Below the pieces are notes generated by a model. The model saw only the letters and a program-made list of their open reading frames with translations. It was not told where the DNA came from and did not search any database. This document shows positions 14,083 to 31,021 of a DNA stretch of 64,000 bases, one piece after another. How positions within the stretch are numbered: the stretch's first letter is position 1; each line of letters starts with the position of its first letter. Origin of the DNA: Limnochordia bacterium (GTDB lineage: Bacteria > Bacillota > Limnochordia > DTU080). Location: contig JBMNJG010000012.1 of assembly GCA_050951545.1 (NCBI GenBank), positions 192,001 to 256,000 on the forward strand. Direction: 5' to 3'. Position numbers and translations under genes: made by a program.

Positions 14083-14134
14083 GGACGGCTGTGCCCCCTC
14101 TGCAAAAAATGATGTGACGCTGTGCGGGTATATC

Positions 14135-15682
14135 TCAGTGTTTGAAATGTCTCAGCCCAGTAAAGACCATGGCTATCCCTGCCTTATCGGCAGCAGCAAT
14201 CGAATCCGCATCCCGTTTGGATCCCCCAGGCTGAATGATTGATGACACGCCCGCGGCGGCTGCAGCCTGTACCACGTCATCGAACGGAAAGAAGGCGTCG
14301 GAGGCCAATGCCGCCCCACGAGCCTGCTCTCCAGCCTGGTTGATAGCGATTTGAGCAGAGAGAATGCGGCTCATCTGCCCTGCCCCTACCCCGAGTGTCT
14401 GCTGGTCACGAGCTACCACAATGGCATTGGACTTAACGTGCTTGACCACGGTCCACGCAAAGCGCAGGTCGCGCCATTCTGCGTCAGTAGGTTCTTTTGC
14501 AGTAACCACTTGCAGTTGATCGGGATCGAGATCCACAAGATCAGCATCCTGCACCAGCAAACCGCCCGGGACGCGCTTCATGTCGAGCCACAGCTTAAGC
14601 GGCTCTGCAGTGAGTTCCACGAGTCGCAGACTGGGTTTTGCACGCAGAATCTCGAGGGCTTGCGGAGTAAAAGCAGGTGCGATGATCACCTCAAGAAAGA
14701 TCTGCTTCATGAGGCTGGCGGTCTGCTCATCAACGGGACGATTGCAGGCCACAATCCCTCCGAAGATCGATACGGGGTCGGCTTCATAGGCCTTCTGATA
14801 CGCTATACTGAGCTCCTCCGCCACAGCCAGTCCACAGGGGTTCGAATGCTTCACTGCAGCCACAGCTGGCTGACTAAAACACCGAATCATCTCGACGGCA
14901 GCCGCGGCATCATGGATGTTGTTGAACGAGAGTTCCTTGCCGTGGAGCTGGCGGGCATTCGCCAGGGTGTTGCCGTTGTTCCATCCTTCTTCTCTGTAAA
15001 ACGCGGCTTTCTGGTGGGGGTTTTCACCATAGCGAAGATGCTGCTGCAGGCTGAAGCGCAGCTGGAGCTTTTGCGGGAAAGCCTGATCAGCTTCCTTAGG
15101 CGGCAGTTTCCCCTCGAGATAGGCGCTAATGGCGACATCGTATTGGGCCGAGTGGGAGAAAGCTTCCTGAGCCAGCATCAAGCGTTCAGATGACGAAGGA
15201 CCGCCAGCGCGGAGCCACGAAAGCACCGTTTCGTAGCGATCAGGATTGACTACTACCACGACATCAGGATGGTTCTTGGCCGCGGCGCGCACCATGGCTG
15301 GCCCCCCAATGTCGATGTTTTCGAGAGCTTCTTCCAGGGTTGTCTCGGCTCGGGCGACCGTGGCAGCAAATGGGTAGAGGTTCACCGCTACGATGTCAAT
15401 CGGAACGATGGATTGCGCTGCCAGGGCTTGCGTGTGTGCCGGAACGGAACGCTTGGCCAGAATACCAGCATGAATCGCTGGATGTAGTGTCTTGACGCGC
15501 CCCTCGAGGATTTCCGGAAAACCCGTCACATCGCTGACGTATTTCACTGCTACTCCTGCATTGCGCAGGACCTCGTAGGTGCCCCCCGTGGAGACTACCT
15601 CAAAGTCCATATCCGTCAGACCTCTCGCGAAATCCACAACTCCCCGCTTGTCAAAGACACTGATTAATGCTCTTCGTTTCAT
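14135..15682 (-). CDS. purH: Bifunctional AICAR transformylase/IMP cyclohydrolase
   Basis: GRVKTLHP, NLYPF, DIGGP, LRYGENPHQ, KHVKSNAIV, SDAFFPF, RHFKH. Confidence 0.97.
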   Translation of the reverse strand: MKRRALISVFDKRGVVDFARGLTDMDFEVVSTGGTYEVLRNAGVAVKYVSDVTGFPEILEGRVKTLHPAIHAGILAKRSVPAHTQALAAQSIVPIDIVAVNLYPFAATVARAETTLEEALENIDIGGPAMVRAAAKNHPDVVVVVNPDRYETVLSWLRAGGPSSSERLMLAQEAFSHSAQYDVAISAYLEGKLPPKEADQAFPQKLQLRFSLQQHLRYGENPHQKAAFYREEGWNNGNTLANARQLHGKELSFNNIHDAAAAVEMIRCFSQPAVAAVKHSNPCGLAVAEELSIAYQKAYEADPVSIFGGIVACNRPVDEQTASLMKQIFLEVIIAPAFTPQALEILRAKPSLRLVELTAEPLKLWLDMKRVPGGLLVQDADLVDLDPDQLQVVTAKEPTDAEWRDLRFAWTVVKHVKSNAIVVARDQQTLGVGAGQMSRILSAQIAINQAGEQARGAALASDAFFPFDDVVQAAAAAGVSSIIQPGGSKRDADSIAAADKAGIAMVFTGLRHFKH

Positions 15683-15696
15683 GAACTCACCCCGTC

Positions 15697-16314
15697 TTAG
15701 TCATCGCCACGAGGCAGGATCCATACACGGCGATTCCTGATGTGAAGTTGCCCTGCGGCGTACAATCGAATACAGGCTGGCAATAGCTTGTGCTCTTCCT
15801 CTAGGATACGAGTCGCCAGACTCTCTTCTGTATCATCAGGATAGACTGGCACTACCCTTTGATCGATAATGGGACCACTGTCGACGCCTTCATCGACGAA
15901 ATGAACTGTACAGCCGCTGAAGCGCACACCGTAGTCAAGCGCTTGACGCTGAGCCGCCAGGCCCGGAAACGCTGGGAGCAAAGACGGATGAATGTTTATC
16001 ACACGTTCGGGATAGCGAGCCAGGAACTCTGCAGGCAGAATACGCATGAACCCAGCTAAGACAACCAGCTCTACGCGCAGCTCTTGCAGCTTCTGAGCTA
16101 AGATGCCGAAAAAGGCGTGTCTACTCCCTGCTTGCGCCGGATCAAGCTCGAAAGTCGCTACATCGTAATGCTTGGCCGTAGCGATAGCGGGCGCTCCCGG
16201 ACGGTCTGTCGCCACCACAGCAATCTCGACAGGCAACTCACCTGCCGCCTTGGCTTTCAGCAATGCCTCCATATTGCTACCTCGCCCAGAAACGAGTATG
16301 GCGCAGCGCAACAT
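15697..16314 (-). CDS. purN: Phosphoribosylglycinamide formyltransferase
   Basis: SGRGSN, LAGFMRIL, NIHPSLLP, VDSGPII. Confidence 0.96.
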   Translation of the reverse strand: MLRCAILVSGRGSNMEALLKAKAAGELPVEIAVVATDRPGAPAIATAKHYDVATFELDPAQAGSRHAFFGILAQKLQELRVELVVLAGFMRILPAEFLARYPERVINIHPSLLPAFPGLAAQRQALDYGVRFSGCTVHFVDEGVDSGPIIDQRVVPVYPDDTEESLATRILEEEHKLLPACIRLYAAGQLHIRNRRVWILPRGDD

Positions 16315-16332
16315 CGCGTACATCCCTCACTT

Positions 16333-17376
16333 TCATGAGAAAAGTAAGCTGGAGTCGCTATCTGAGGCTTTCACGATCTCACCGATGACGAAGGCGGGAT
16401 GGCCGCTGGCTTCGATTAGCTCACAAGCACGAGCTGCCTCTTCCTCTGGAACTAGCACCACCATAGCTACGCCCATGTTGAAGGTGCGGTACATCTCCTG
16501 CATGCTAACCCCCCCACCTTTTTGGAGAAAGGCGAAGACAGGTGGAATGGGCCAACTCCCCTTTCGCACAACTGGTCGCAGACCCTTTCTCACCGAACGG
16601 GGTAGGTTCTCCGGTAGGCCGCCCCCGGAGATATTGGCGATACCATGCACCGAAACTTCGCTGATGAGCTTCATGATGGCATCGGCGTAGATTCCGGTAG
16701 GTGTCAGAAGTACCTCGCCGATGGTGGCCCCCAGTTCCTCAACGTAATGATCTACATCAAGCTGCATGGTGTCAAAAACGATACGGCGTACCAGTGAGAA
16801 TCCGCTGCTTTGCAGCCCTGTGGAGCCTATAGCGACGATCTTGTCGCCAGCTGCTACTGCTGACCCATCGATGACGTCACGCCGGTCGACGACGCCGACA
16901 GCGAAGCCAGCCAGGTCATACTCACCTTCTGCATAGAATCCTGGCATCTCGGCGGTCTCTCCGCCAATCAGGGCGCATCTTGCCTGCCGGCACCCGGCGG
17001 CCACGCCCGAGACAATTTCCTCGATCTGCGCAGGTGTGGCCTTGCCTACGGCGAGGTAGTCCAGGAAAAACAGGGGCTTGGCTCCTTGGCAGATGATGTC
17101 ATTGATGCAGTAGGCCACCAGGTCAATGCCCACGGTGTCGTGGCGATCTGCCATAAAGGCCACTTTCAGTTTCGTACCCACGCCGTCTGTGCCTGAGACT
17201 AACACGGGTTCTTTGAGATTCGACGTATCCAATGCGTAGAAGCCACCAAAGGCGCCGATATCATTGAGGACCTCTGGTCCATAGGTGCTTTGGGCGAGGG
17301 TCCGAATGCGCCGCACGGCTTCGTACCCAGCCTCAATATCCACTCCAGCGGCTTTATAGGTCATCTCATCGGACAT
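16333..17376 (-). CDS. purM: AIR synthetase (phosphoribosylformylglycinamidine cyclo-ligase)
   Basis: YKAAGVDI, GTDGVGTK, FFLDYLA, GGETAEMPG, TFNMG. Confidence 0.97.
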   Translation of the reverse strand: MSDEMTYKAAGVDIEAGYEAVRRIRTLAQSTYGPEVLNDIGAFGGFYALDTSNLKEPVLVSGTDGVGTKLKVAFMADRHDTVGIDLVAYCINDIICQGAKPLFFLDYLAVGKATPAQIEEIVSGVAAGCRQARCALIGGETAEMPGFYAEGEYDLAGFAVGVVDRRDVIDGSAVAAGDKIVAIGSTGLQSSGFSLVRRIVFDTMQLDVDHYVEELGATIGEVLLTPTGIYADAIMKLISEVSVHGIANISGGGLPENLPRSVRKGLRPVVRKGSWPIPPVFAFLQKGGGVSMQEMYRTFNMGVAMVVLVPEEEAARACELIEASGHPAFVIGEIVKASDSDSSLLFS

Positions 17377-17381
17377 TGGCC

Positions 17382-18764
17382 TCACTCCTCATCTTCCAGT
17401 ACGTCTAGCGTTGTTTGGGGCTCTCTTACCCCAACGGGATACTTGGCTGTAAAGCAAGCCGTACACAATTCTTCACCTGCCACCTGTACCGCCTTGTACA
17501 GGCCAGTAATAGACAGGTAGTGCAGACTATCCGCACCGATAAGCTGACGCACTTGCTCTTGCGTGCGGTGGGCAGCGATGAGATCATCAGCACTGGCGAT
17601 GTCGATGCCGTAGTGACACGCATGCATGAAAGGGGGCGACGCGATGACCATGTGTACCTCGCGCGCACCAGCGTCTCGAACCATCTCCACAGTTTTCCCA
17701 CTGGTGGTGCCCCGCACAATAGAATCATCGACCACGATCACGCGCTTGTTCTTCAGAAGTGCGCTGACAGGGTTGAGCTTAATGCGTACACCTTTTTGGC
17801 GCAAGGCAGGAGTTGGTTGAATGAAGGTTCTTCCTACGTAACGGTTCTTCATCAAGCCGAAATCAAAGGGCAGCCCAGATTCCTCTGCATAGCCCAGTGC
17901 TGCCGACGTACCTGAGTCAGGCGCTGGAATCACCAGGTCAGCCGCGATGCAGGTCTCTCTGGCAAGTTCGCGACCGATTGCCTTGCGGACCAGGTGTACG
18001 TTTCGCGCTCCGAGATAGCTATCAGGTCTGGCGAAGTAGATGTACTCAAAGACGCAGAACGCGGGCTGGGCTTGCTCCAACTGCCGGCTATGTATTCCTT
18101 GCGCGTCAACAACTACCAGCTCGCCAGGCGCCACATCGCGAACTGGCTCGGCACCAATGGTGTCGAAGGCGGCCGACTCAGAGGCCAGAATCGTTGCCGA
18201 ACCCTGCCTACCGATACTTAGAGGCCTGATACCTGCATGGTCTCGAAATCCGATGAGCTGCTTGTTGGTCATCAAGACCACGGAAAAGGCGCCTCGAAGA
18301 GAACTGATGGCCCCCACCACCGCCTCCTCAAACGGATCGCCAGGATGACGAGCTATGAGGTTGAGAATAAGCTCGCTGTCAGTCGTCGTCTGGAGTACCG
18401 AGCCCTCAAGCTGCAGTTGCTGGCGCAAGGAGGGTGCGTTTATGAGGTTGCCGTCATGCGCTAACGCCAGTTGGCCGTGTTGGGTGAACCCCAATAGAGG
18501 TTGAGCGTTGGCCACGTGAGGCTCACCCGCTTTGGAGTAGCGGACATGGCCGATGCTGATTGACCCAGGCATCTGAGCTACTATGTCGTCAGTGAGCACC
18601 TGAGTAACCAGGCCCATCCCCTTGCGGATACGGATGCGACGGCCATCAGATACCGCTAGACCAGCGGACTCTTGGCCTCTGTGCTGCAGGGCATAGAGGC
18701 CAAGGTAGGCGGTCTCAGCGCCCTCGTTTCCTTCAGGTGAGAAAAAGCCAATCACGCCGCACAT
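17382..18764 (-). CDS. purF: Amidophosphoribosyltransferase (Fe-S type) with altered glutamine-site residues
   Basis: Starts MCG at ATG 18764; QHRGQE, VDDSIVRGTT and Fe-S cysteines present. Has RYSKAG and AHDGNL instead of RY.TAG and AHNGNL. Confidence 0.95.
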   Translation of the reverse strand: MCGVIGFFSPEGNEGAETAYLGLYALQHRGQESAGLAVSDGRRIRIRKGMGLVTQVLTDDIVAQMPGSISIGHVRYSKAGEPHVANAQPLLGFTQHGQLALAHDGNLINAPSLRQQLQLEGSVLQTTTDSELILNLIARHPGDPFEEAVVGAISSLRGAFSVVLMTNKQLIGFRDHAGIRPLSIGRQGSATILASESAAFDTIGAEPVRDVAPGELVVVDAQGIHSRQLEQAQPAFCVFEYIYFARPDSYLGARNVHLVRKAIGRELARETCIAADLVIPAPDSGTSAALGYAEESGLPFDFGLMKNRYVGRTFIQPTPALRQKGVRIKLNPVSALLKNKRVIVVDDSIVRGTTSGKTVEMVRDAGAREVHMVIASPPFMHACHYGIDIASADDLIAAHRTQEQVRQLIGADSLHYLSITGLYKAVQVAGEELCTACFTAKYPVGVREPQTTLDVLEDEE

Positions 18765-18766
18765 AG

Positions 18767-21037
18767 TTACCTCTGCCCCCCATGGGCACGCTCGGAATGG
18801 AAGCCCTTCATGGTGTGGCGCAGGCTGTTGTTGTAGCGTTCTGCCATCGCCTCCACTGTCCAGCACAAAGGACTGCTAGCGGAGGGGTGTGTGCCTTTTT
18901 GTAGCGTAATCGTCAGCGAGTTGCCGCCTACGCGTCCAAGGGCTTCACAAGGTACAGCGTGCTGACTGGCGATCTCCTGCAGACGTGATAGATGCCTTTC
19001 GGGCAAAGAGAGCACGATGCGCGATGGCGACTCACCAAAGAGAACGGCATCAGGCCGCAGATCTTGCACTAGATCGATAGTCGCTCCTTTGCCACTCAGA
19101 ATGCAGCACTCTGCCAAGCTGACTGCCAAGCCGCCTTCCGAGCAGTCATGTGCTGAGGCGAGTAGACCCTCTTCGGCTGCAGTCAGGACAGCAGCTTGCA
19201 CTCGTTTCTCGAGATTCAGATCAAGCTGCGGGAGTTGGCCTCCCTCCAGTCCATAAACAACGGCTAGGTATTCACTTCCACCTAGCTCGGCTTTAGTGTC
19301 TCCCACAAGCGCGATCACGTGACCCTCTTGTTGCCAGCCAGCCTGTAGGTGACGCTGAGCATCCTCCAGCAGCCCCAGCATACCGATGATGGGTGTGGGA
19401 TAGATCGCCTGGCCATCAGTTTCGTTATAGAGGCTCACATTCCCCCCGGTCACTGGTATATCCAGGGCCCGGCAGGCTGCGGATATTCCCTCGACAGCTC
19501 TTCGCAATTGCGAGAAGGCCTCCGGCTTCTCCGGATTCCCGAAGTTGAGACCGTCAGTGATGCCCAATGGCTGCGCTCCCACGCACACCACGTTGCGCGC
19601 TGCTTCTGCTACAGCCATGGCAGCTCCCACGTAGGGGTCGAGGTAGCAGTAGCGAGAGTTGCAGTCAAGGGTCAACGCGATGGCTCTGCGGCTACCAGTA
19701 ATGCGTATGACCGCAGCATCACCAGCGCCGGGTCCGACGAGCGTGTTTCCTTGTGCTTCGCTATCGCACTGATCATACACCCAGCTCTTGCTGGCGATAG
19801 AGGGGCTAGCCAACAGTCGCAGCAGGCATGCATGGAGATCGTCTGTCACTGGTGGTACAGGCTGTGCCGCCAGTTCGTCTTCCCAGGCAGGTCTGGCTTC
19901 TGCAGGATAATAGCGCGGTGCTCCCTCACTGGAGAGCGAGGCTGCGGGTACCTCCGCCACCACCACATCGCCTTCACGTACGCGGAGCACTCCGTCGTCC
20001 GTGACTCTGCCGATTAGCGTAGCCTCAACACCCCATTTGGCGAAAATGGCCATAGCTTGCTTCTCGCTTCCTTTTCTGGGGATGATGAGCATCCGCTCTT
20101 GAGATTCGGAGAGCATGATCTCATAAGGTGTCATGCCCTCGTCCTTGCGCGGTACGAGAGCCACATCCAGCTCAATACCAGTACCTGCTCTAGCAGCCAT
20201 TTCTGAAGAGGAGCTAGTTAGCCCGGCGGCACCCATATCTTGGATACCCTCTACGACACCGCTAGCGATGACTTCAAGGCACGCTTCGATGAGACGTTTT
20301 CCGGTATCGGGATCACCAATGGCTACTGCATGGCTTTGCTCATGAGAGGCCTCATCCAGTTCGGCTGAGGCAAAACTAGCCCCCAAGATGCCGTCTCGTC
20401 CCGTGCGGCCGCCGGCTACTAACACTGGGTTGCCCACTCCGCGAGCACTAGCGGTGGCGATGTGTCGGTGTTCCACGACACCAACACCCATGGCATTCAC
20501 CAGGGGGTTACCTTCATAGCAAGGGTGGAAGTAGATCTCCCCACCTACGGCAGGGACATTGGCTGTGTTGGCATAGCTGCTGATACCCTCGGCAACACCG
20601 GCTACGAGAGCGCGAACGCGTTCGATATCTGGGCTACCAAAACGCAGTGAGCTCAATACGGCTATGGGCCTGGCTCCCATGGCGAAAATATCCCTTAGAA
20701 TACCGCCTACGCCAGTAGCTGCAGCAAGCACTGGCTCTATTGCAGATGGATGATTGTGGGATTCGACCTTAAAGCAGACAGCGAGTCCGTCACCGATGTC
20801 AATAATCCCTGCATTTTCCCCTAGGCCTTCGAGCAACCGATCCGACTGGGTGGGAAAGAGATGAAACAGCGTTCTGGAGTGCTTGTAGGCACAGTGCTCA
20901 GACCATAGTGCTGCGTACATACCAAGCTCTGTCCAATTGGGATCACGCCCAAGGGCATCCACTACCATCTGATATTCTTGGTCAGTGAGTCCCATCTTCC
21001 GCCAGATCCTGCCGGCCTTGATTTCCCCTACATCCAT
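18767..21037 (-). CDS. purL: FGAM synthetase, small-type PurL subunit
   Basis: WSEHC, KVESHNHPS, DMGAAGL, SESQERM, GGNVSLYN; 756 aa, no fused glutaminase domain. Confidence 0.96.
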   Translation of the reverse strand: MDVGEIKAGRIWRKMGLTDQEYQMVVDALGRDPNWTELGMYAALWSEHCAYKHSRTLFHLFPTQSDRLLEGLGENAGIIDIGDGLAVCFKVESHNHPSAIEPVLAAATGVGGILRDIFAMGARPIAVLSSLRFGSPDIERVRALVAGVAEGISSYANTANVPAVGGEIYFHPCYEGNPLVNAMGVGVVEHRHIATASARGVGNPVLVAGGRTGRDGILGASFASAELDEASHEQSHAVAIGDPDTGKRLIEACLEVIASGVVEGIQDMGAAGLTSSSSEMAARAGTGIELDVALVPRKDEGMTPYEIMLSESQERMLIIPRKGSEKQAMAIFAKWGVEATLIGRVTDDGVLRVREGDVVVAEVPAASLSSEGAPRYYPAEARPAWEDELAAQPVPPVTDDLHACLLRLLASPSIASKSWVYDQCDSEAQGNTLVGPGAGDAAVIRITGSRRAIALTLDCNSRYCYLDPYVGAAMAVAEAARNVVCVGAQPLGITDGLNFGNPEKPEAFSQLRRAVEGISAACRALDIPVTGGNVSLYNETDGQAIYPTPIIGMLGLLEDAQRHLQAGWQQEGHVIALVGDTKAELGGSEYLAVVYGLEGGQLPQLDLNLEKRVQAAVLTAAEEGLLASAHDCSEGGLAVSLAECCILSGKGATIDLVQDLRPDAVLFGESPSRIVLSLPERHLSRLQEIASQHAVPCEALGRVGGNSLTITLQKGTHPSASSPLCWTVEAMAERYNNSLRHTMKGFHSERAHGGQR

Positions 21038-21070
21038 GAGTTAGCTCCCCTCGGAAATGTTGATGGCCCG

Positions 21071-22474
21071 TCAAGATGGACAGGCTAGCTGAAGCGTTCT
21101 TTCCCAATGATCGGCTACTTTTAGGGCCTTATCTGCCGCGATCCCTACATAGAGCTCTGGACAGTCGAGCACTTGGCGTTGACTCTTGCTCATGCGATTC
21201 AGGTATGGGGCCAGTTCTTTGCTTTCCTTCACGACGGTGCGCAAAGACTGACCTGTCTGCTCAGCAACTAGGGTGAGCTGACGGACGGCCTCGTGCGCAT
21301 GAGGATGGCCCTGGGCAGCGAGCAACATGTACAAGGGCTCAGCAACTACCATCTCCTTACTGAGCACGAAATTCTCCTTCATTCGGCTAGGATCGACAAC
21401 GACTTTGCGACACACACGCACCAGACGCTCGCTAGCTGCGACAAGGGTGGCGGCCAACTCCGGGACAAAACGACTGGAAGCAGAGTTAGTGAGATCACGC
21501 TGATGCTCCGATATCTGGTCCATGTAGAGAGTCATCATGCGTGGGCAGAACGCTTTCCACATACTCTTGACGTGCTCGAAGTTCCAGGGATTGCGCTTAT
21601 GAGGCATTGTCGACGAGCCGACCTGCAGCTCCTCAAAGCGCTCCCCCACCTCGGCGATCTCACTGCGTTGAAGATGCCGCAGATCATCACAGAAGTTCGC
21701 CAACACTCCAAAGGTGGAAACCAATGCATGCGCCCAATCTAACACGTATTCCGGCTCTACAATCTGTGTGGAGTGCGTTGACGGAGCCAGCCCCAGCTCG
21801 GCCAGTACCTCTCGTTCAAAGGCCTCTGGATCGGCGAAGAACAAGGCACTGGCGTTGTAGGCGCCCACGGCACCAGCCATCTTTCCGCGCAGAGCGGCAG
21901 TGGTCTGCTCTATAACGACCAGGCGGTTGCCCAGACGGCTGGTATACTCTGCCATCGCAAAACCAAAGGTAATGGGTACCGCATGCTGTCCATGGGTGCG
22001 CCCTATCTGTAGGGTGCATGCTTCACTGCGGACGATCCGTATCCATATCTGCATGAGCTCCCTGAGCTGAGGGATGATCATCTGCGTTGTTACGTCGCGA
22101 TACTGTAAAACCCGTGCTGTGTCTGTGATGTCACATGAGGTGGCGCTGAAGTGCACGAATGGCTTTGCCTCGGGGCTGATCCTTCTGTTAATGCAGTTTA
22201 CGAGGGCTCGGACGCTATGGTGGGTGATTGCCTCTTCGGCATAAACCTCTTCGGGTGTAAGCGCTCTGATCGCTTGCGACACTTCTGTGGCCACACTTGT
22301 TGGGCACAGACCGCGTCGTGCTAAGACGGTTGTCAGCGCCTCTTCTACTCTCGCTTGATACTGTATGTAGGCATTCTCGGAAAGGTAGTCGCTCAATCTC
22401 GCGAAAAGATCTGGGGCAGAGGCGTAGTAACGATGGTCTAGAGGGCTGATGGAAGCGAAGACGTCTCGTTGCAC
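21071..22474 (-). CDS. purB: Adenylosuccinate lyase
   Basis: ISPLDHRY, GRTHGQHA, GSSTMPHKRNP signature, in pur context. GTG start after AGGAGA. Confidence 0.93.
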   Translation of the reverse strand: MQRDVFASISPLDHRYYASAPDLFARLSDYLSENAYIQYQARVEEALTTVLARRGLCPTSVATEVSQAIRALTPEEVYAEEAITHHSVRALVNCINRRISPEAKPFVHFSATSCDITDTARVLQYRDVTTQMIIPQLRELMQIWIRIVRSEACTLQIGRTHGQHAVPITFGFAMAEYTSRLGNRLVVIEQTTAALRGKMAGAVGAYNASALFFADPEAFEREVLAELGLAPSTHSTQIVEPEYVLDWAHALVSTFGVLANFCDDLRHLQRSEIAEVGERFEELQVGSSTMPHKRNPWNFEHVKSMWKAFCPRMMTLYMDQISEHQRDLTNSASSRFVPELAATLVAASERLVRVCRKVVVDPSRMKENFVLSKEMVVAEPLYMLLAAQGHPHAHEAVRQLTLVAEQTGQSLRTVVKESKELAPYLNRMSKSQRQVLDCPELYVGIAADKALKVADHWERTLQLACPS

Positions 22475-22487
22475 GCTGCAATCTCCT

Positions 22488-22593
22488 AATGTTCGTGTTT
22501 TGCCGACCCACGTCCATTCTAGCAAAGGCAAAAGGGCATGGTCAAGGCCTAAAACCGAACGTTACAGCTATTATCCGCATATCGTTCGTGTCC
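22488..22593 (-). promoter_or_regulatory. SigA promoter for purB-purD with PurR PurBoxes
   Basis: TTGACC(22545-22540)-18nt-TAGAAT(22521-22516). Inverted PurBox pair GAAC-N23-GTTC (22551-22593) upstream and AAACACGAACATT (22500-22488) downstream, matching the Bacillus-type AWWWCCGAACWWT consensus. Confidence 0.75.
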
Positions 22594-22595
22594 AC

Positions 22596-23099
22596 TCATT
22601 TTTGGCGCCATTCCTTGGCCAGCCTGGCATCTTTGGCGAGGACTTCTGCGGCCATTTCCTGTCTGTAGGCCAGCAGACGTTCGCGCATGCTGGGATCTGT
22701 GAGCGCCAGCAACTGAGTTGCGAAAAGAGCAGCGTTATGGGCCCCGTCAATGGCCATTGTCGCCACTGGGATCCCCGAAGGCATCTGCACGATGGCGTAT
22801 AGGGCATCGACCCCTGCTAGCGCTCCGCCGCGAATAGGGACTCCGATGACTGGCAGAACTGTGTAGCTAGCTAACACTCCGGGTAAGTGGGCCGCTCTGC
22901 CAGCACCAGCAATGAGAATGCGAAGCCCCCGTCCTTCTGCTTCCTTAGCGTAGCAAGCAGCTGCTTCGGGCGTGCGATGGGCGGAAAGCACCCGTACTTC
23001 AGCAGGTACCTGAAGATCGGATAAGGCATGCGCAGCCTTCTGCATCACTTCCCAGTCCGAATCACTTCCCATGACAATCCCTACAAGCGGCTTGTTCAT
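22596..23099 (-). CDS. purE: N5-CAIR mutase / AIR carboxylase PurE
   Basis: [37 protein letters not shown]. Confidence 0.96.
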
Positions 23100-23142
23100 C
23101 TGCCCATACGTCCTTCCCCGAATCGTGTTGACATGCTGTAGA

Positions 23143-24372
23143 CTAGCTGACGGCTCGGCGACTCCCCAGGGTATCCAGTTCACCAGAATGACGGCAGCGA
23201 AGAAACGTCAGCCCGGGCATCGGTGGATGTGTTAGAAAGCTGGGGTGTGTCACTCGATTGCCGATCAGAAACACCATGACAAGATAACCAGAACGACGCA
23301 ACGAGAACAATGCTTCGACGATCTCAGGTGTATCCTCAGGGGTGATCACGAGAACAGTTGATGCCCACGGAAGCTGTCTGCCTTCGTCCGAAAGGCACTG
23401 CGCAAAAGGTTTGCCGCGTTGCACCTGCACACGTGCCAGGGCCTCCATGACCTTCATCAACTGGGGACCCCCCTTGCGGCTTGATATCCGAATGGGTGCC
23501 GTATCGGTGATCCCAACCACCGGAGGTCCATCGCGACCATTGGTCACTAGTCCGACTGGTTGCCTTTGCCTATGCAAGTAATAGGCCAGTGACGCTGCTA
23601 CTTCGATAGCAAACTCGCTCATGTGGTCGATCGATTGCACGTCGTACTCCCCGTCACTGAGGTTCAGGAACACGGTGGTCTCCAAAGCAATGGTTGGCGA
23701 GAACTCCCTTACGTGCAATCGTCCACTGCGAGCGCTCGCTTTCCAATGCATACGCTTGAGAGGATCTCCGGGTTGGTACTCCCGTACTCCCGACGTGCGA
23801 GCTGGATCCTCGTAGAAGCGTTGTTGGGCATGAAGTTCACCGATGGGCAAACTCGACGGGAGACCGATGCCAGATAACGGGTGCACCTTCGGGTAGACCA
23901 CAACCTCATCAAACAGATCGATCCGTCCTTGCAGGATCTCTAGGCCCCAAGGGTCGCCAGCTTCAATATGAAGTGGTCCGATGCGAAACACGCCACGAAA
24001 GCGTCCCTGTGTGCGGTAATCAAACGCCACACGTTGGCCGGGGGCCAGAGCGTACACTGCCTTTCGTGGAGAGAGGGCGAATAGACCCGTAGGCAGCTCG
24101 TCTGTTGTCGAAACCCAAACCAGGGGTGCCCAGCTTGTGTTGTGTGCCTGTAACGTGACGGTGAACTCTTCACCTCGAAACAGATGGCTGGTACTGACCT
24201 TGCGCTTTACGACCAATTTTCCGAAACCTTTTCTGGTTACGAAGCGAGCGCCCCAATACACGAGCAAAAGGGAATAAAGTATGACGTAAATGACCTTACC
24301 AGTGAAAAACAGGGCAATAGCACCTATCGCCCACAGACACTGTCGCCAGTATCGGCGCATCATGCGGCACAC
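23143..24372 (-). CDS. DUF58 domain membrane-anchored protein
   Basis: N-terminal TM helices, RG.F.IGP, VYPK, VREYQPGDPLKRMHWKASAR, EVAASLA. Confidence 0.88.
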   Translation of the reverse strand: MCRMMRRYWRQCLWAIGAIALFFTGKVIYVILYSLLLVYWGARFVTRKGFGKLVVKRKVSTSHLFRGEEFTVTLQAHNTSWAPLVWVSTTDELPTGLFALSPRKAVYALAPGQRVAFDYRTQGRFRGVFRIGPLHIEAGDPWGLEILQGRIDLFDEVVVYPKVHPLSGIGLPSSLPIGELHAQQRFYEDPARTSGVREYQPGDPLKRMHWKASARSGRLHVREFSPTIALETTVFLNLSDGEYDVQSIDHMSEFAIEVAASLAYYLHRQRQPVGLVTNGRDGPPVVGITDTAPIRISSRKGGPQLMKVMEALARVQVQRGKPFAQCLSDEGRQLPWASTVLVITPEDTPEIVEALFSLRRSGYLVMVFLIGNRVTHPSFLTHPPMPGLTFLRCRHSGELDTLGSRRAVS

Positions 24373-24378
24373 CCCCAG

Positions 24379-24954
24379 TTAGTGATGCAGGTGTCGACTG
24401 CCGCGGCTGGTGAATGGCTGGTTCGCTGCACACAAAGGGCACTGATCTGCAGACCATGCCTGTGCTTCGAGGCGCATAAGAGGCTCGGCTCTCACCCCGA
24501 ATTCGGCCTTGCCGCCGCTGCGATCCACCAAGTAGCCGACTCCAACGATGTCCCCTTCGCAGTCCTTGACCAAGTTGAGGACCTCAAGAACTGAGCCGCC
24601 TGTTGTCACCACATCCTCGACAATCAGCACCCGTTCACCTGGGGCTATAGCGAAGCCACGACGAAACGTCATGCGGCCGTCCTCACGTTCCGAGAATATG
24701 GCCCTGGTGCCGAGGACTTTGCCTACTCCGTGAGCTAAGAGAATGCCACCAGTAGCTGGTCCCACTACGACCTGTACCCTGTCATCCGCAAAACGAGCCG
24801 CGATCATGTCACACAGCTTCTGAGTCAAGTCAGGATACTGCAGTGCTGCGAACTTCTCTAAGTAGGTGTCGCTGTGTAGGCCTGACGTAAGGACAAAATG
24901 CCCAGAAAGCAGGGCTCCGGTCTGAAGGAACAGATCACGTACCTCGTCACTCAT
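24379..24954 (-). CDS. pyrE: Orotate phosphoribosyltransferase
   Basis: GHFVLTSGLHS and VLIVEDVVTTGGS PRPP motif. Confidence 0.95.
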   Translation of the reverse strand: MSDEVRDLFLQTGALLSGHFVLTSGLHSDTYLEKFAALQYPDLTQKLCDMIAARFADDRVQVVVGPATGGILLAHGVGKVLGTRAIFSEREDGRMTFRRGFAIAPGERVLIVEDVVTTGGSVLEVLNLVKDCEGDIVGVGYLVDRSGGKAEFGVRAEPLMRLEAQAWSADQCPLCAANQPFTSRGSRHLHH

Positions 24955-25033
24955 CTCGCTGACTCCTCCAAGCATCGTTCTGCGCTAGATCATTGCCATG
25001 AGCCCAGATTCCTGGTTCTGGCTACATCGGCAA

Positions 25034-25972
25034 TTATCCCACATGTGCCGCTCCCACAAGCTTGCGAATAGGAAGGCCCGTCTTGTCGCAATAGGCAGCT
25101 AGACCCTGAATAATTTCCACAGCTGCGAGAGGGTTACGGAAAGTGGCAGTTCCCACCGCCACGGCCGTCGCACCAGCGAGGATGAACTCGATCGCATCAC
25201 GCGTAGTCATGATGCCCCCCATGCCGATGATGGGCACATCGACACTCTCATAGACTTGCCAGACCATGCGTACTGCGATGGGACGGATAGCCGGACCAGA
25301 CAGTCCGCCTACCACATTGGCTAAGACTGGTTGGCGTTTTTCGACATCGATGTTCATGCCAAGCAAGGTGTTGATCAGGCTGATGATATCAGCACCCGCA
25401 GCCACAACCGCTTTGGCTATTGCTACGATGTCCGTCACATTGGGTGAGAGCTTCACAATAACCGGTAGGTCGGTTGACTCCGCAACCGCAGCCACTACCG
25501 CAGCAGCAGCTTGGGGGTCAGTTCCAAAGGCAATGCCACCTTCCTTGATGTTGGGGCAGGAGATGTTAACCTCTACAGCGGCGACACCGCGGGCCTGGCT
25601 CAGTTTGGCTGCCACGGCAGCGTACTCCTCAACGGTCTTCCCTACAATGTTGACGATGGTGGCCAAGCGGTGCTCAGCCAGCCAGGGCAGATCACAAGCA
25701 AGAAAATGGTCTACCCCAGGATTCTGCAGACCGATTGAATTAAGCATCCCAGCAGGCGTCTCCGTGATGCGCGGGGGCGGGTTCCCTGGCCAGGGGTCAA
25801 GTGACAAGCCTTTGACAACAAGCGCTCCCAGCGCGTTTATGTCAAAGTACTCGGCGTATTCCCGACCATAGCCGAAAGTACCCGAAGCCACCATGACCGG
25901 GTTTTGCAGGGCTAGGCCCGCCAGTTCCACCTGAAGATTGTGTCGGCTCGCCGAATCAGCACATGACATCAA
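25034..25972 (-). CDS. pyrD: Dihydroorotate dehydrogenase family 1B catalytic subunit
   Basis: [43 protein letters not shown]. Confidence 0.96.
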
Positions 25973-26747
25973 ATGCTACCTCCAGACCGTCGAAAACCGG
26001 ACCTTCCCTACATACCCGTTGCCAGCTCCATTCCTCGCTACCGGTGGGCCGAATCGGGCAGACGCATGAAAGGCAAGCACCGACACCACAGGCCATGCGT
26101 TCTTCGAGCGAGACCTGACAACTCAGGCCGCGTCGCCTACACCATTCCACCACTGCGTGCATCATATGGAGCGGTCCACATGTGTAGACTGGACCGGACC
26201 CCTGCCAGGTTTGCAGAAGGAAGGTGACAGGTCCGCATTGGCCCCAGGAACCATCGTCAGTGGCCACCTCAGTATCAAGGGCCAACGCTTCAAACGCGTC
26301 AACACAGATGACCTCTGCGCCTGTGGAAAAGCCTAGCAGCACGTGAGGTCTCCATCCAAGTGAGTGCATTCTCTGGGCGAGGAACACAAGAGGCGCTGCC
26401 CCCAGTCCACCTCCGACTAACAGAGGCTGTTTCTGTGGTTGTGGCAGCTCGAACCCGTGTCCTAGAGGACCCAAGACGTCCAGAGAAGCGCCTTCCTGAA
26501 GTGAAGCCAGGGCTTCTGTGCCAACTCCTTTGACTCTGAAAAGCACTGACCAGCTGCCATCCTCTGCCACGGAGGAGATGCTCATAGGGCGGCGCAGGAA
26601 TGGATCAAGCGCGTGTGTTGCCGAAAGATGCACGAATTGGCCTGGTTGTGCCTTGGCCATGGCCCAATGGTGTTCCAGGACGAGTTCGTGGATTTCGGGT
26701 GCTACTGCGTGGCTGCGACGGACACTTACCTGAAAGGAACTCTTCAT
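25956..26747 (-). CDS. pyrK: Dihydroorotate dehydrogenase electron transfer subunit
   Basis: [37 protein letters not shown]...VCREGPVF (2Fe-2S). Confidence 0.95.
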
Positions 26748-26759
26748 GCTTTGCGCTCC

Positions 26760-27836
26760 CTACGCCGACCTCTGCAGCTCGCTTAGAAAGCGATCGACCA
26801 GGCAACACTCTGGTAGCGAGTCTGGAGAGGTCAGGGGATCATATTGTACCGAGGAGACGTTTAGATACTTGTGCCGCAAACCCTCTATCGTTTCGTCATG
26901 AAGGCTCCTGTGCGTGATGACTAGCTCACTGGGAAGACCTCGTTCATCCACAGCGAAGCCATGGTTTTGAGAGGTGATCAAGACGCGATTGGTCTGCAGG
27001 TCCATGACGGGGTGGTTGGCGCCTCGATGGCCATGTGTGAGTTTGAAGGTGTCGGCGCCAAGAGCGAGAGCCAGTATCTGGTGCCCCAGCCCAATGCCGA
27101 GAAGAGGCACAGCCCCTATGAGTCGGGCGGCCGTCTCAATGATACCCTGAGAAGTCTTTGGGTCCCCTGGGCCAGAGGTGAGCAAAACCCCGTCTGGGCG
27201 AAGGGCCAAGATGGCCTCGGCTGACGTGGATGCCGGGACTACGGCGATGCGACAGGCCTTCGTCTTCAGGTGCTGCAGTATGTTTCGTTTCGCCCCAAAA
27301 TCGAAGATCACAATGCGTTTCCCGTCGCCTCTGTGCTCCATGAACGGTTGGGTGGTTGTGACTGCGCTGACGAGATCCTGACTGGAGATATCGGGAGCGG
27401 CGACTATACGTGCCAGCAACCCGGACGAGTCTACGTCACCGCTAGCAATGGCTCCCTTCATAGTACCCTGATCACGCAGCATGCAGGTCAGCGCTCTGGT
27501 ATCTAGACCAGAGATTCCGACCATGTCATGCTTCTGCATGAAGCTGGCGAGCATACCTCCCGATTGCCAGTGGCTAGGGGTAGAAGACGCTTCGCTGACC
27601 ACGAGGCCGCGAGCGTGCGGTCGCTCAGAGGTGAGGACTGCTTTGCTGATTCCATAGTTGCCGATCAGCGGGTACGTCAGCATCAGAATCTCACCGTGGT
27701 ATGAAGGATCGACAATGATATCTTGGTACCCTGTCATGCTGGTGTTGAACACGACCTCGCCGTGTACCTCACCAGGGACTCCCAAGGTCTGTCCTTCCCA
27801 AACGGCTCCATTTTCTAGCATCAGAATCGAGCGCAC
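26760..27836 (-). CDS. carA: Carbamoyl-phosphate synthase small subunit homologue lacking the glutaminase catalytic triad
   Basis: GEVVFNTSMTGYQ, DPSY, TYPLIGNYG, DTRALT, GPGDP, SQNHGFAVD are intact; GIGLGHQ and QYDPL replace GICLGHQ and QYHPE. Start may be 27845. Confidence 0.93.
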   Translation of the reverse strand: MRSILMLENGAVWEGQTLGVPGEVHGEVVFNTSMTGYQDIIVDPSYHGEILMLTYPLIGNYGISKAVLTSERPHARGLVVSEASSTPSHWQSGGMLASFMQKHDMVGISGLDTRALTCMLRDQGTMKGAIASGDVDSSGLLARIVAAPDISSQDLVSAVTTTQPFMEHRGDGKRIVIFDFGAKRNILQHLKTKACRIAVVPASTSAEAILALRPDGVLLTSGPGDPKTSQGIIETAARLIGAVPLLGIGLGHQILALALGADTFKLTHGHRGANHPVMDLQTNRVLITSQNHGFAVDERGLPSELVITHRSLHDETIEGLRHKYLNVSSVQYDPLTSPDSLPECCLVDRFLSELQRSA

Positions 27837-27892
27837 ACCTATCACTCCCAGGAAATCGTGTTACGCTGTGCGGGCATGTCGGAGGCTATGAC

Positions 27893-28825
27893 CTAGGCTC
27901 GCCTCAGCGCCCTATTGATGGACTCCTTGGCCATCGATGCGGCTTGTCTGGCCGCTGCAGCAAAACCTCGAGCATCACCGGAACGGCGGTAGGCGAAGAG
28001 GATGTCACGGCTGGAGTTGACCACCGCACCCATGCCCTGTCGGTCAAAGGCCCCTGCCACGTCATCTGCCCGCGCCCCTTGTGCTCCGAAGCCTGGTAGC
28101 AGAAAGACAGTGTGCGGCATGGATTCGCGCAGCACCCGGATAGCTTCCGGGTGTGTGGCCCCAACCACTGCACCAAGCGCGCTGTAGCCTGCGCGACCTA
28201 GACACGACCTACCCCACATGTCGACGAGACGGGCCACTTCAGTGTACAGAGGTTTGCCATCTACGTTTAGGTCCTGGATCTGCGTGGCACTGGAGTTTGA
28301 AGTGCGTACCAGGGCAAAAACGCCTTTTCCCCTTCCCCATCGTTGAAGGAACGGTTCAATACCGTCACTGCCCAAGTAAGGATTGACCGTGATCGCGTCT
28401 GCTTCCCCCGGTCCGCCGTCTGCATCGCCCGAGCATGGTCCGAGGAAACCTGCCGCATAACCTTCGGCAGAAGAGCCGATGTCATTTCGCTTGGCGTCTG
28501 CAATGACAAGCAGATCGTGCTCTAATGCAGTCTGCACCGTGGACTCGTAGGCGCGCCATCCCGGGGCGCCCCACTGTTCGTACAGGGCTAGTTGTGGTTT
28601 CACGGCCACGGCGTGATCCACTACCGCCGCGATGATCTCTCGATTGAACCGTAACGCCGCATCCGCCATCTGCACACGTAAGTCGCCTTCACAGCACTTA
28701 CGCGCATTCTCTACCAAGTGCTTGGGTAGCAGCCCTGCATGTGGGTCTAGACCAACCACCAACCGGCTGTTCTTATCGGCACAGGCGTCAAGCAGGCGAT
28801 CGGCAAAATGTCGACTCTTATTCAT
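27893..28825 (-). CDS. pyrF: Orotidine-5'-phosphate decarboxylase (subfamily 2)
   Basis: VGLDP, KPQ, DAKRNDIG, RTSN, GAVVGAT, PGFGAQG, NSSR; ATGA overlap with the pyrC stop. Confidence 0.95.
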   Translation of the reverse strand: MNKSRHFADRLLDACADKNSRLVVGLDPHAGLLPKHLVENARKCCEGDLRVQMADAALRFNREIIAAVVDHAVAVKPQLALYEQWGAPGWRAYESTVQTALEHDLLVIADAKRNDIGSSAEGYAAGFLGPCSGDADGGPGEADAITVNPYLGSDGIEPFLQRWGRGKGVFALVRTSNSSATQIQDLNVDGKPLYTEVARLVDMWGRSCLGRAGYSALGAVVGATHPEAIRVLRESMPHTVFLLPGFGAQGARADDVAGAFDRQGMGAVVNSSRDILFAYRRSGDARGFAAAARQAASMAKESINRALRRA

Positions 28826-30108
28826 TGAGCATCCCCCCATGCCAGTATCCCGTTCACGAATGTAGCGATCGGCCAACCCCGCAGACGTTGTCCTAGTAGG
28901 GGGGTGTTCTTGCCTTTCGAAACAAGATTTGCCGCCGTTACGACCAGTTCTTTTTTGGGGTCTACTAAAGTAAAATCGGCTGCAGTTCCCGGTCGAAGTG
29001 TGCCAGCGCCATCTGCCAATCCCAGCAACTCAGCTGGTCGGGTGCTCAGTACCTGTACCAGTCGTGAGAGGCTCACGCGGCCAGTAGAGACGAGGTGGGT
29101 ATAAAGTAACGCCAGAGTAGTCTCCAGAGCCACGGCTCCCCAAGGCGCTCGAGTGATCTCCACATCGGCCTCCTCAGCGGTCCAGGGTGTGTGATCGCTG
29201 GAGACGCAGTCAATGATCCCCTTGGCTAATCCTTCGACAAGGGCTTCTACGTGATCGACGGATCTGAGGGGCGGCAGAAGCTTGCATGCAGGGTCAAAGC
29301 TCTCTAACGCTTCGTCGGTCAGTACGAGGTGATGGGCCGAAACGTCGCAGCTGACAGGGATGCCAGCTGCCTTAGCCTGCGCCATGAGCCGGACCGAGTT
29401 GGCTGAACTAATCCGAAAGAAGTGCACTGGGCAGTCCGTCTCGGCCGCGAGTAACAGATCACGTGCGAGGGCTGTCTCTTCAGCCACAGCTGGTATGCCC
29501 TTCAATCCACACAACGTCGAAACCGTACCCTCGTGCATCAGTCCATCCATGACAAGCGCTGGATCGTGTGGTTGCACGCCAACAAGAGGCACCATTCCTT
29601 TGAGATACTGAAGCGTGCGCCGAAACAGGGCAGCGTTCGTGATAGGGCCATCCGGCTGCACAAAAGCCTGAGCACCTGCTTCTGCCATGGCCGCAAACTC
29701 TGGCATGGTCTCTCCAGCTAGTCCGGTGCTGAGAGCCCCCGCCACCAGAACACGCACACGGCCCTTCTTAGCTCCATGCACGAGCGCCTGGGCCACTGCC
29801 GATGGGGTATCTAGGGCGGGGTGTGTGTCAGGCATCATCAGCACTGTAGTATAGCCGCCGCGAGCAGCCGCCTGGGATCCACTCTCTACGGTCTCTCGCT
29901 CTTCGGCCCCCGGTTCGCACAGGTGAGTATGTAAGTCCACAAGTCCGGGCAGAAGCAGCAGACCATCGGCCTTAATAAGGCGTGCACCGCTGCTGGCGAC
30001 ATCGCTGCCGATCTGCGCGATGCGTCCGTCGATCACCAGAAGATCCTGCTGTGAATCAAGATCATCTGCAGGGCTCACCAGGCGAGCTCCCTTAACTAGC
30101 CAGTTCAT
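28822..30108 (-). CDS. pyrC: Dihydroorotase homologue, probably inactive PyrC'-type
   Basis: Type I DHOase fold (DLHTHL, AARGGYTT, PPLR, SDH) with several metal and substrate ligands replaced (see findings). Confidence 0.88.
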   Translation of the reverse strand: MNWLVKGARLVSPADDLDSQQDLLVIDGRIAQIGSDVASSGARLIKADGLLLLPGLVDLHTHLCEPGAEERETVESGSQAAARGGYTTVLMMPDTHPALDTPSAVAQALVHGAKKGRVRVLVAGALSTGLAGETMPEFAAMAEAGAQAFVQPDGPITNAALFRRTLQYLKGMVPLVGVQPHDPALVMDGLMHEGTVSTLCGLKGIPAVAEETALARDLLLAAETDCPVHFFRISSANSVRLMAQAKAAGIPVSCDVSAHHLVLTDEALESFDPACKLLPPLRSVDHVEALVEGLAKGIIDCVSSDHTPWTAEEADVEITRAPWGAVALETTLALLYTHLVSTGRVSLSRLVQVLSTRPAELLGLADGAGTLRPGTAADFTLVDPKKELVVTAANLVSKGKNTPLLGQRLRGWPIATFVNGILAWGDAQ

Positions 30109-31021
30109 TGCGCTCACCTCCCGATAGGAGATACAAGACAGCCATGCGTATGGCTACACCATTACTAACCTGATCGTGTATGACTGAACGAGGATCCTCT
30201 GCCGCCTCCTCGGTTATCTCAACTCCGAGATTGGCTGGACCCGGATGCATGAGAACGATGTCTTGCCCTAGTGCATCGAGACGCTCCTTGGTAATGCCGT
30301 AGCGTCGTGAGTACTCCCGCAAGGAGGGGAAAAGACCAACCTTCTGGCGCTCGAGTTGCACGCGCAGTACATTGACGACTTCTGCTCCGTGCAGAGCCTT
30401 GTTGAGGTCAGTGTAAACCTCGACGCCCAACCCCTCCAACCCCGGAGGCAAAAGCGTCGCTGGTCCACACACGGCGACTTGAGCTCCCATCTTGATCAGG
30501 CCCCAGATGTCGGAGCGAGCTACTCTGCTATGCAATATGTCACCAACGATTAGCACACGTCGCCCGGAAAGCGAGCCCAGGCGTTGTCTGATGGTGAACA
30601 GATCGAGCAACCCCTGTGTCGGATGCTCGTGTGTGCCATCACCAGCATTGATGACTCCAGCGCGGATGGTACGGGCGATCAAATGCGGGACGCCAGGTGA
30701 GGAGTGCCGGATGACCACGAAATCCGCGCCCAGCGCCTCGATGGTGCGCACCGTATCTTTGATGCTCTCTCCTTTGGTTACGCTGCTTGTGGCCACAGCG
30801 ACACTCATGACTTCAGCCGAGAGCCACTTGCCTGCCATCTCGAACGACATCCGAGTGCGGGTGCTGGCTTCGTAAAAAAGGTTGACCAGGACTTTGCCGC
30901 GCAGCGTCGGTACTTTGCGCACAGGTCGGGACAAGATCTGTTTGCAGGCATCAGCCGTGTCTAGCACCAGCTCGATGTCTTCTTTGCCCAGCGATCTGAG
31001 ATCAAGCAGATCCTTGCGCAT
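30092..31021 (-). CDS. pyrB: Aspartate carbamoyltransferase catalytic subunit
   Basis: EASTRT, KGESIKDT, NAGDG..EHPTQ, HSRVARS, RVQLER, MHPGP. Confidence 0.97.
   Translation of the reverse strand: MRKDLLDLRSLGKEDIELVLDTADACKQILSRPVRKVPTLRGKVLVNLFYEASTRTRMSFEMAGKWLSAEVMSVAVATSSVTKGESIKDTVRTIEALGADFVVIRHSSPGVPHLIARTIRAGVINAGDGTHEHPTQGLLDLFTIRQRLGSLSGRRVLIVGDILHSRVARSDIWGLIKMGAQVAVCGPATLLPPGLEGLGVEVYTDLNKALHGAEVVNVLRVQLERQKVGLFPSLREYSRRYGITKERLDALGQDIVLMHPGPANLGVEITEEAAEDPRSVIHDQVSNGVAIRMAVLYLLSGGERNELAS

Follow-up and report, generated by a model that had tools for sequence, protein, structure and literature searches.

Dead, altered or missing glutaminase parts at three steps of nucleotide synthesis in a Limnochordia bacterium: a probable move from glutamine to free ammonia

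Amidotransferases are the textbook example of ammonia channelling, and for some of them ammonia-only counterparts are known, namely the NH3-dependent single-domain NadE beside the glutamine-dependent NadE, and AsnA beside AsnB. The described systems closest to the present case are the canonical carbamoyl phosphate synthetase (CPS) composed of CarA (PyrAA) and CarB, known from the Escherichia coli structures (PDBID 1JDB and 1C30), and the Bacillus subtilis formylglycinamidine ribonucleotide (FGAM) synthetase, in which small PurL (smPurL) associates with PurQ and two PurS chains. Here we describe a block of pyrimidine and purine (pyr-pur) genes of a Limnochordia bacterium (genome G000), located in a stretch of 64,000 nucleotides, C12:192001-256000 of that genome, which we refer to in its entirety as the window. 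The block encodes members of these same families: a two-domain CPS small subunit without the catalytic triad, a PurL of the same full-length type whose partners are missing, and an amidophosphoribosyltransferase, PurF, with a changed glutamine site. An initial annotation of the window had proposed from these features a coordinated loss of glutaminase function and an ammonia-fed nucleotide pathway. On the sequence evidence presented below, we consider it probable, at roughly 60%, that this lineage now makes carbamoyl phosphate, phosphoribosylamine and FGAM with free ammonia in place of glutamine.

Vertebrate CPS I (PDBID 5DOU and 6UEL) likewise retains an inactive glutaminase-like part and uses free ammonia, and it matches G000 CarA at 177.7 bits in a PDB search. 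CPS I is, however, one fused chain of 1500 residues that requires N-acetylglutamate and belongs to the urea cycle, whereas carA and carB of G000 are separate genes 110 kb apart, and in G000 CarA all three triad residues have been replaced. The relevant passages of a 2018 review state that CPS accepts externally supplied ammonia and that CPS I is ammonia-only, and they give bacterial CPS only as the glutamine-dependent CPS II (PMC6022934). Archaeal PurF′ proteins also lack the nucleophilic Cys, and ammonia-dependent activity is proposed for them in the passage of the original paper that deals with them (Brown et al., 2011; PMC3261824). They are extra copies beside a normal PurF, in contrast to the altered PurFs of G000 and its relatives G001, G002, G006, G007 and G008, each of which is the sole copy and lies in the pur operon. 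The NadE and AsnA/AsnB pairs follow the same principle but are long-established separate families, whereas here several glutamine enzymes appear to have been converted in place. A literature search over the main text of papers returned no description of a triad-less bacterial CarA, of PurL without PurQ and PurS, or of their combined loss. What seems new, then, is the combination: several enzymes, altered in place and repeatedly, with dead domains under selection, across most of a class.

Glutaminase parts of CarA, PurF and PurL

The genome examined comprises 3.64 Mb in 16 contigs, with a completeness of 93.9% and a contamination of 1.6%. Its sole carA (26760..27845, minus strand, as are all genes of the block) encodes a protein that scores 407.5 bits over its full length against the TIGR01368 cut-off of 307.35 and matches both PF00988 (CPSase_sm_chain) and PF00117 (the class-I glutamine amidotransferase, or GATase, domain). 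Aligned to the E. coli CarA structures over residues 6-357 (~300 bits), it carries Gly252, Asp336 and Leu338 at the positions of E. coli Cys269, His353 and Glu355; the corresponding codons are 27090-27092, within the motif GIGLGHQ, 26838-26840 and 26832-26834. The initial annotation's statement that CarA has lost Cys, His and Glu is therefore correct. Among 61 distant CarA homologues from other phyla that served as controls (39-51% identity to G000 CarA), 60 possess Cys-His-Glu and the single exception is a truncated sequence; among the 120 closest homologues in a large protein collection, 112 possess it. Two CarAs recorded at NCBI as 'Limnochordia bacterium' are 70% and 52% identical to that of G000. 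Public records name proteins of this kind 'glutamine-hydrolyzing', a label that is almost certainly wrong for G000 CarA because the Cys-His-Glu triad is absent. Despite that loss the protein keeps the motifs SGPGDP, LGHQ and QNHGFAV, which we take to be the glutamine-pocket motifs of E. coli CarA.

Whole-genome profile searches yielded one carA, the triad-less gene just described, and one carB (1518 bits, TIGR01369). The latter closes an argC-argJ-argB-argD-carB operon in which all five genes are intact and no carA is present (C12:329829-337655, L166); directly downstream of carB lies a homologue of ADP-dependent sugar kinases. Carbamate kinase was searched for in G000 and not found, the top match (42 bits) being ArgB, which leaves CarA-CarB as the one visible route to carbamoyl phosphate in this genome. 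Arginine synthesis as well as pyrimidine synthesis therefore relies on a CPS whose sole small subunit is unable to split glutamine by the known mechanism. In four relatives the dead carA directly adjoins carB (G005:C84, G006:C381, G013:C80 and G018:C30).

The purF gene (17382..18764) is the only one of the genome and its only GATase_7 match. The protein scores 505.8 bits against a TIGR01134 cut-off of 350, over model positions 1-432 including the phosphoribosyltransferase (PRTase) domain, and 455 bits to B. subtilis PurF (PDBID 1AO0). Translation starts at the ATG at 18764, two bases past the purL stop and preceded by a ribosome-binding site, and because the protein thus begins Met-Cys, the nucleophile Cys1 is kept in G000. 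Two further positions have changed, as had been read in the initial annotation. Lys78 (codon 18531-18533) gives RYSKAG in G000 as against RYATAG in B. subtilis and RYSTAG in Arabidopsis, and Asp104 (codon 18453-18455) gives HDGNL as against HNGNL in both. From the structures of E. coli PurF and GlmS, we presume that the Thr of the RYxT loop and the Asn of the Asn-Gly oxyanion pair form part of the glutamine site. Cys, Thr and Asn are all present in 91 of the 120 closest PurF homologues in a collection of 5.8 billion proteins, and the nearest ones fall into a series, namely Cys/Lys/Asn (87% identity), Cys/Lys/Asp (G000 itself) and Ser/Lys/Asp (85% identity), that looks like a stepwise decay of the glutamine site. 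Homologues with NCBI labels are 61% ('Limnochordia bacterium') and 57% ('Limnochordales bacterium') identical.

The purL gene (18767..21037) encodes a small FGAM synthetase subunit (943.5 bits, NF002290; 863.8 bits, TIGR01736). It starts 33 bp after purB, the spacer (21038..21070) containing a ribosome-binding site, and this is the very place that purS and purQ occupy in the relatives G009 and G008, the usual order in G009 being purS-purQ-purL-purF. With 756 residues compared to 760 in G009, PurL possesses no N-terminal extension able to replace PurS. Neither purQ (TIGR01737, PF13507) nor purS (TIGR00302) gave a match anywhere in the G000 assembly, and purQ-like or GATase_5 sequences were not found in it even at an E-value of 0.1. 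When PurS and PurQ of G009 were compared by phmmer with all six-frame open reading frames (ORFs) of at least 40 residues in G000, the best E-value was 0.29. The lack of purQ and purS beside purL that the initial annotation had reported extends, in other words, to the whole assembly, and the intact carA or purQS copies elsewhere in the genome that it had named as counter-evidence were not found. The CarA and PurF comparison counts and the genome searches together establish that all three parts of the observation are real and unusual.

Spread in the class and recurrence in the phylum

The distribution of these states was followed in a class sample of 41 genomes, composed of G000 and 40 relatives, with the same set searched throughout. 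PurL exceeds its cut-off in 33 of the 41, and purQ and purS each do so in the same 12 genomes; 21 of the 33 genomes with a clear PurL have neither partner. In G001, G002 and G007, purB abuts purL just as in G000. CarA occurs in 24 genomes, of which 13 have only Cys-less copies, nine have only intact copies, and two (G004 and G005) have both kinds. The Cys-less CarAs carry Gly in place of Cys (Ser in G010), and His and Glu are mostly gone too. PurF has lost Cys1 from its sole copy in eight genomes, replaced by Ser in G001, G002, G006, G007 and G008, by Gly in G013 and G018, and by Ala in G014; G001 and G002 belong to the same genus as G000. A clear purQ is present in one of the 13 genomes whose CarA copies are all Cys-less versus 9 of the 11 with intact CarA, counts that are taken over related, non-independent genomes.

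Several of these relatives display gene arrangements of their own. G004 holds two sets: a syntenic pyr-pur block with dead carA, a second purF copy with Gly at Cys1 and no purL in the purB-purF interval (G004:C21:8000-27000, L135), and a canonical purS-purQ-purL-purF array with an intact carA fragment (G004:C126, L134); G005 is similar. The double set of G004 could reflect replacement by transfer or contamination of the bin (~5%). In G013 (C80, L154) and G018 (C30, L155), a divergent Gly1 PurF-like gene of 297-299 bits, below cut-off, stands beside dead carA-carB, and both genomes have a 948-residue PurL-like ORF with a weak adjoining purQ-like gene and no purS.

A quick maximum-likelihood tree of CarA was computed after removal of the short G003 sequence, two G004 fragments, L127 and L130, with every third control kept. 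In this tree G000 CarA groups with Bacillota, and the dead CarAs are not monophyletic. Three changes at minimum are required by its well-supported branches, with G007 and G010 (dead) next to G009 and G011 (intact), and G006 (dead) next to G014 (intact). We also considered that the dead CarAs might be a single old paralogue family. This idea was ruled out because the tree splits the dead forms, and it is contradicted as well by the position in the pyr operon that G000 carA shares with the intact carA of G009.

The altered proteins are under purifying selection. By the Nei-Gojobori method, the ratio of nonsynonymous to synonymous substitution rates (dN/dS) of the dead CarA GATase domain is 0.105 between G001 and G002 (dS 0.70) and 0.11-0.16 against G000, with a span of 0.105-0.158 within the genus, and selection is equally strong on this domain and on the N-terminal domain. 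For the PurF glutamine domain, dN/dS is 0.053 between the two Ser1 species G001 and G002 and 0.06-0.075 against G000, with a dN close to the PRTase domain's. The values for purL, purB, purM and purE are 0.04-0.11. The whole range of 0.04-0.16 indicates that the altered genes encode conserved proteins and are not pseudogenes. Substitutions private to this one assembly, which would have counted against the initial annotation, are not what we find, as they are shared with relatives.

Because relatives within a class are not independent, the association was examined outside it, in an evenly sampled set of 151 genomes of the phylum that includes G000 and four others of its class. Outside the class, 8 of the 89 genomes with a clear small PurL lack purQ, a number that rises to 10 of 89 once two with fragmented purL genes are included. 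These ten, eight with intact PurL and two with fragments, represent seven families. The purQ-less genomes of this set (handles G047, G048, G170, G130, G139, G151, G176 and G168) are mostly small, at 1.5-2.5 Mb. The ten genomes with purQ that came first in the list served as controls. CarA was found in none of the ten purQ-less genomes versus nine of the ten controls; the nine control CarAs all possess Cys-His-Glu, and one of these genomes has a second copy that reads Cys-Tyr-Lys. PurF keeps Cys1 in 9 of 10 purQ-less genomes and in 10 of 10 controls, whereas an intact RYST loop is seen in 2 of 10 and 10 of 10, respectively. The purine part of the association thus recurs independently outside the class.

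Source of the nitrogen

If the three steps have indeed turned to free ammonia, the CarB encoded in the arginine operon would make carbamoyl phosphate from NH3, bicarbonate and ATP, and the triad-less CarA would be retained as its structural or allosteric partner, comparable to the glutaminase-like domain that vertebrate CPS I keeps in inactive form. PurL would act alone on NH3, and isolated small PurL was reportedly found active with NH3 by Hoskins et al. in 2004. PurF would be in the course of losing its glutamine site, two residues having changed in G000 and Cys1 being gone in sister species, so that the PRTase domain would then be fed by NH3. For the E. coli enzyme, exchange of Cys1 for Ala or Ser is stated to abolish glutamine-dependent activity while ammonia use is kept (PMC3261824, at the point where it cites its ref 22). 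We infer that the dead CarA and the PurF N-terminal domain may be kept for structure, stability or regulation.

Other nitrogen and carbon capture steps of G000 present a mixed picture. The genome has four class-I GATase (PF00117) matches, namely GuaA, PyrG, CarA and a PuuD-like protein, and GuaA, PyrG and the PuuD-like protein have Cys, His and Glu intact. Amidotransferases of the HisH, TrpG and PabA types are not among the PF00117 matches of G000; the corresponding steps of the histidine, tryptophan and folate branches are perhaps absent from this genome or likewise free of a glutaminase. GlmS was not found in G000 or in 18 further members of the class sample. It and NagB complement each other over the set of 41, as all 19 genomes without GlmS have NagB over its cut-off and all ten without a clear NagB have GlmS. 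Five NagB-family matches are found in G000 (C4:328644-329288, C5:45360-46076, C7:302279-303007, C10:48864-49598 and C7:267200-267778). Since murA is present, glucosamine 6-phosphate is needed, and the absence of GlmS together with the presence of NagB fits its ammonia-dependent synthesis; salvage of amino sugars explains the pattern equally well.

As for carbon, PurE (purE, 22596..23183) is of the class I, or N5-carboxyaminoimidazole ribonucleotide (N5-CAIR) mutase, type, scoring 130-181 bits to class I structures compared with 60 bits to the class II structure 3RG8 and, for the PurE domains of bifunctional enzymes from animals, 48-52 bits. Enzymes of this class normally need PurK, and the lack of purK asserted by the initial annotation holds for the genome: PurK was not found in G000, the top TIGR01161 match (32 bits) being a different ATP-grasp protein. 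Without PurK, N5-CAIR in G000 would have to arise non-enzymatically, a reaction that high CO2 makes feasible. Both gaps, that of GlmS beside NagB and that of PurK beside a class-I PurE, are in keeping with a cell that has NH3 and CO2 in plenty.

A number of observations weigh against a move to free ammonia, or narrow it. Intact triads in GuaA and PyrG, together with a glutamine synthetase present in G000, mean that the cell both makes and uses glutamine, whose chemistry is thus not blocked in general; they also mean that the nucleotide pathway is not wholly ammonia-fed and that any shift is partial. G000 PurF keeps Cys1, and the Lys and Asp sites might permit some glutaminase activity. PurL alone may be a poor enzyme, since B. 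subtilis reportedly needs PurS to make purines (PMC3261824). Coupling among the changes is loose. G008 has purQ and purS, yet its PurF is of the Ser1 kind and its CarA is without the Cys; in G014 and G031 CarA is intact but purQ is lacking; and G012, G017 and G026 combine dead CarA and lack of purQ with a near-canonical PurF and GlmS. Outside the class, absence of CarA may simply mean that there is no CPS at all. Nearly all of the genomes are metagenome bins, with G000 at 93.9% completeness, and the link to an ammonia-rich habitat, although plausible, draws only on the taxonomic label and on papers about the class. The two central proposals of the initial annotation accordingly stand in part. 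Coordinated loss gains support from the association of purQ with CarA in the class, from recurrence in other Bacillota classes and from the missing purK, and is weakened by G008, G014 and G031; the ammonia-fed pathway agrees with the states of CarA, PurF and PurL and, among the other amidotransferases, with the missing GlmS, and disagrees with the intact GuaA and PyrG and the retained Cys1 of PurF.

The alternative that survives best, although we regard it as unlikely, is that glutamine is still the donor: the altered PurF would work, and an unrecognised glutaminase, be it the PuuD-like protein (C11:313936-314787) or one of an unsearched fold, would feed CarB and PurL. Such a reading can draw on PurF, in which Cys1 and the RY-loop Arg-Tyr pair are kept, on the complete Cys, His and Glu of the PuuD-like GATase, and on the presence of glutamine synthetase. 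The PuuD-like gene, however, lies far from carB, from purL and from the cluster and scores 112.8 bits against a cut-off of 266, and no purQ-like or GATase_5 protein turned up even under the permissive search described above. PurF of sister species lacks Cys1 altogether while the domain evolves at a dN/dS of ~0.05. Moreover, unrelated lineages show the same losses, and a replacement partner confined to one lineage would leave these unexplained.

Less probable still is that the de novo pathways are decaying, with bases, nucleosides, arginine and amino sugars salvaged and the altered genes on their way to becoming pseudogenes. The failure to find HisH- or TrpG-type GATases, GlmS and PurK would be expected from decay, as would the scores of PurC and PurB below their family cut-offs and the small genomes, 2.0-2.6 Mb, of many relatives. 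Decay is difficult to reconcile, however, with an 18-kb block in which all ORFs are intact and all but purB exceed their cut-offs, or with dN/dS of 0.04-0.16 for carA, purF, purL, purB, purM and purE at dS above 0.7. The state is, in addition, common to genus, family and order, and in four relatives the dead carA is still operon-linked to carB.

We give similarly little credence to the possibility that the dead CarA, and perhaps the PurF N-terminal domain, has been re-purposed as a regulatory subunit sensing glutamine or nitrogen, a role that would be compatible with ammonia use. The retained SGPGDP, LGHQ and QNHGFAV motifs, with the pocket roles we assume for them, and selection on the dead domain that matches the strength of that on the N-terminal domain are what a sensor would predict; the same motifs are, however, also core elements of the fold, and they drift in the more distant dead CarAs of G012, G013 and G018. 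Finally, an assembly or binning artefact, with missing genes left unassembled and odd residues arising as sequencing errors, is very improbable, for although G000 is 93.9% complete in 16 contigs and G004 and G005, the two genomes with canonical plus altered sets, carry ~5% contamination, the purS-purQ site is a clean 33-bp spacer inside a 429-kb contig, the same junction is found in G001, G002 and G007, and the substitutions recur in assemblies made independently and in four clusters of the large protein collection.

The gene block and the meaning of the finding

The three genes lie in a single long block of pyr and then pur genes that occupies ~18 kb of the minus strand (12814-31021) and in which every ORF is intact. 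Its order is pyrB, pyrC, pyrF, carA, pyrK, pyrD, pyrE, a DUF58 gene, purE, purB, purL, purF, purM, purN, purH and purD. All of the biosynthetic genes match their NCBIfam and Pfam families, and all except purB exceed the curated cut-offs. Upstream of carA are the pyrimidine genes pyrB, pyrC and pyrF (27893..31021), recognised by their family matches, and downstream are pyrK, pyrD and pyrE (24379..26747), with no carB in the carA-pyrK interval. The DUF58 gene (23143..24372), which stands between the pyr and pur parts and outside the pathway, encodes a protein of 409 residues without an NCBIfam match or an obvious tie to nucleotide synthesis; it occupies the same position in G001, G002 and G004:C21. 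Adenylosuccinate lyase, the product of purB (21071..22531), scores 276 bits against a TIGR00928 cut-off of 326, and PurB of G009 is similarly low at 294 bits. The remainder of the purine operon, purM, purN, purH and purD (12814..17385), is intact and above family cut-offs. A single purC-like gene is found elsewhere in the genome (C4:45012-45644, L167; 98.5 bits, with the cut-off at 189.9), and both it and purB read as divergent members of their families. An Rfam scan of the window gave one tRNA as its sole match, riboswitch and PyrR elements all remaining below threshold.

A broader interpretation, which we advance tentatively and with less conviction than the shift itself, is that these features constitute a recurrent syndrome of anaerobic Bacillota that reaches its peak in Limnochordia. 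Modules for capturing nitrogen and carbon when these are scarce, namely the CarA glutaminase, PurQ and PurS, the glutamine site of PurF, GlmS and PurK, would be shed or inactivated together, central biosynthesis would run on free NH3 and CO2, and the dead domains would be kept as structural or regulatory pseudo-enzymes. Limnochordia, in the groups MBA03 and DTU010, are described as abundant in high-ammonia biogas reactors in passages of two papers (PMC12663870, PMC11932165), passages in which purine, pyrimidine and amidotransferase genes do not figure. Given the prominence of the class in such reactors, the trait may relate to ammonia tolerance, a practical problem of anaerobic digestion. If this is true, the gene set would be a genomic marker, and perhaps a partial cause, of life at high ammonia, as in biogas digesters.

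The finding also exposes a systematic annotation error, and tools that assess pathway completeness would call purine synthesis in such genomes incomplete. Bacteria are usually assumed to need the glutaminase partners of these enzymes in vivo, and a class whose members mostly rely on PurL alone, retain a triad-less CarA under selection and are losing the nucleophile of PurF would show them to be dispensable under some natural conditions. If the favoured reading is true, ammonia-only CPSs resembling CPS I would have evolved several times independently in bacteria, and would supply several independent bacterial parallels to the transition from CPS II to CPS I.

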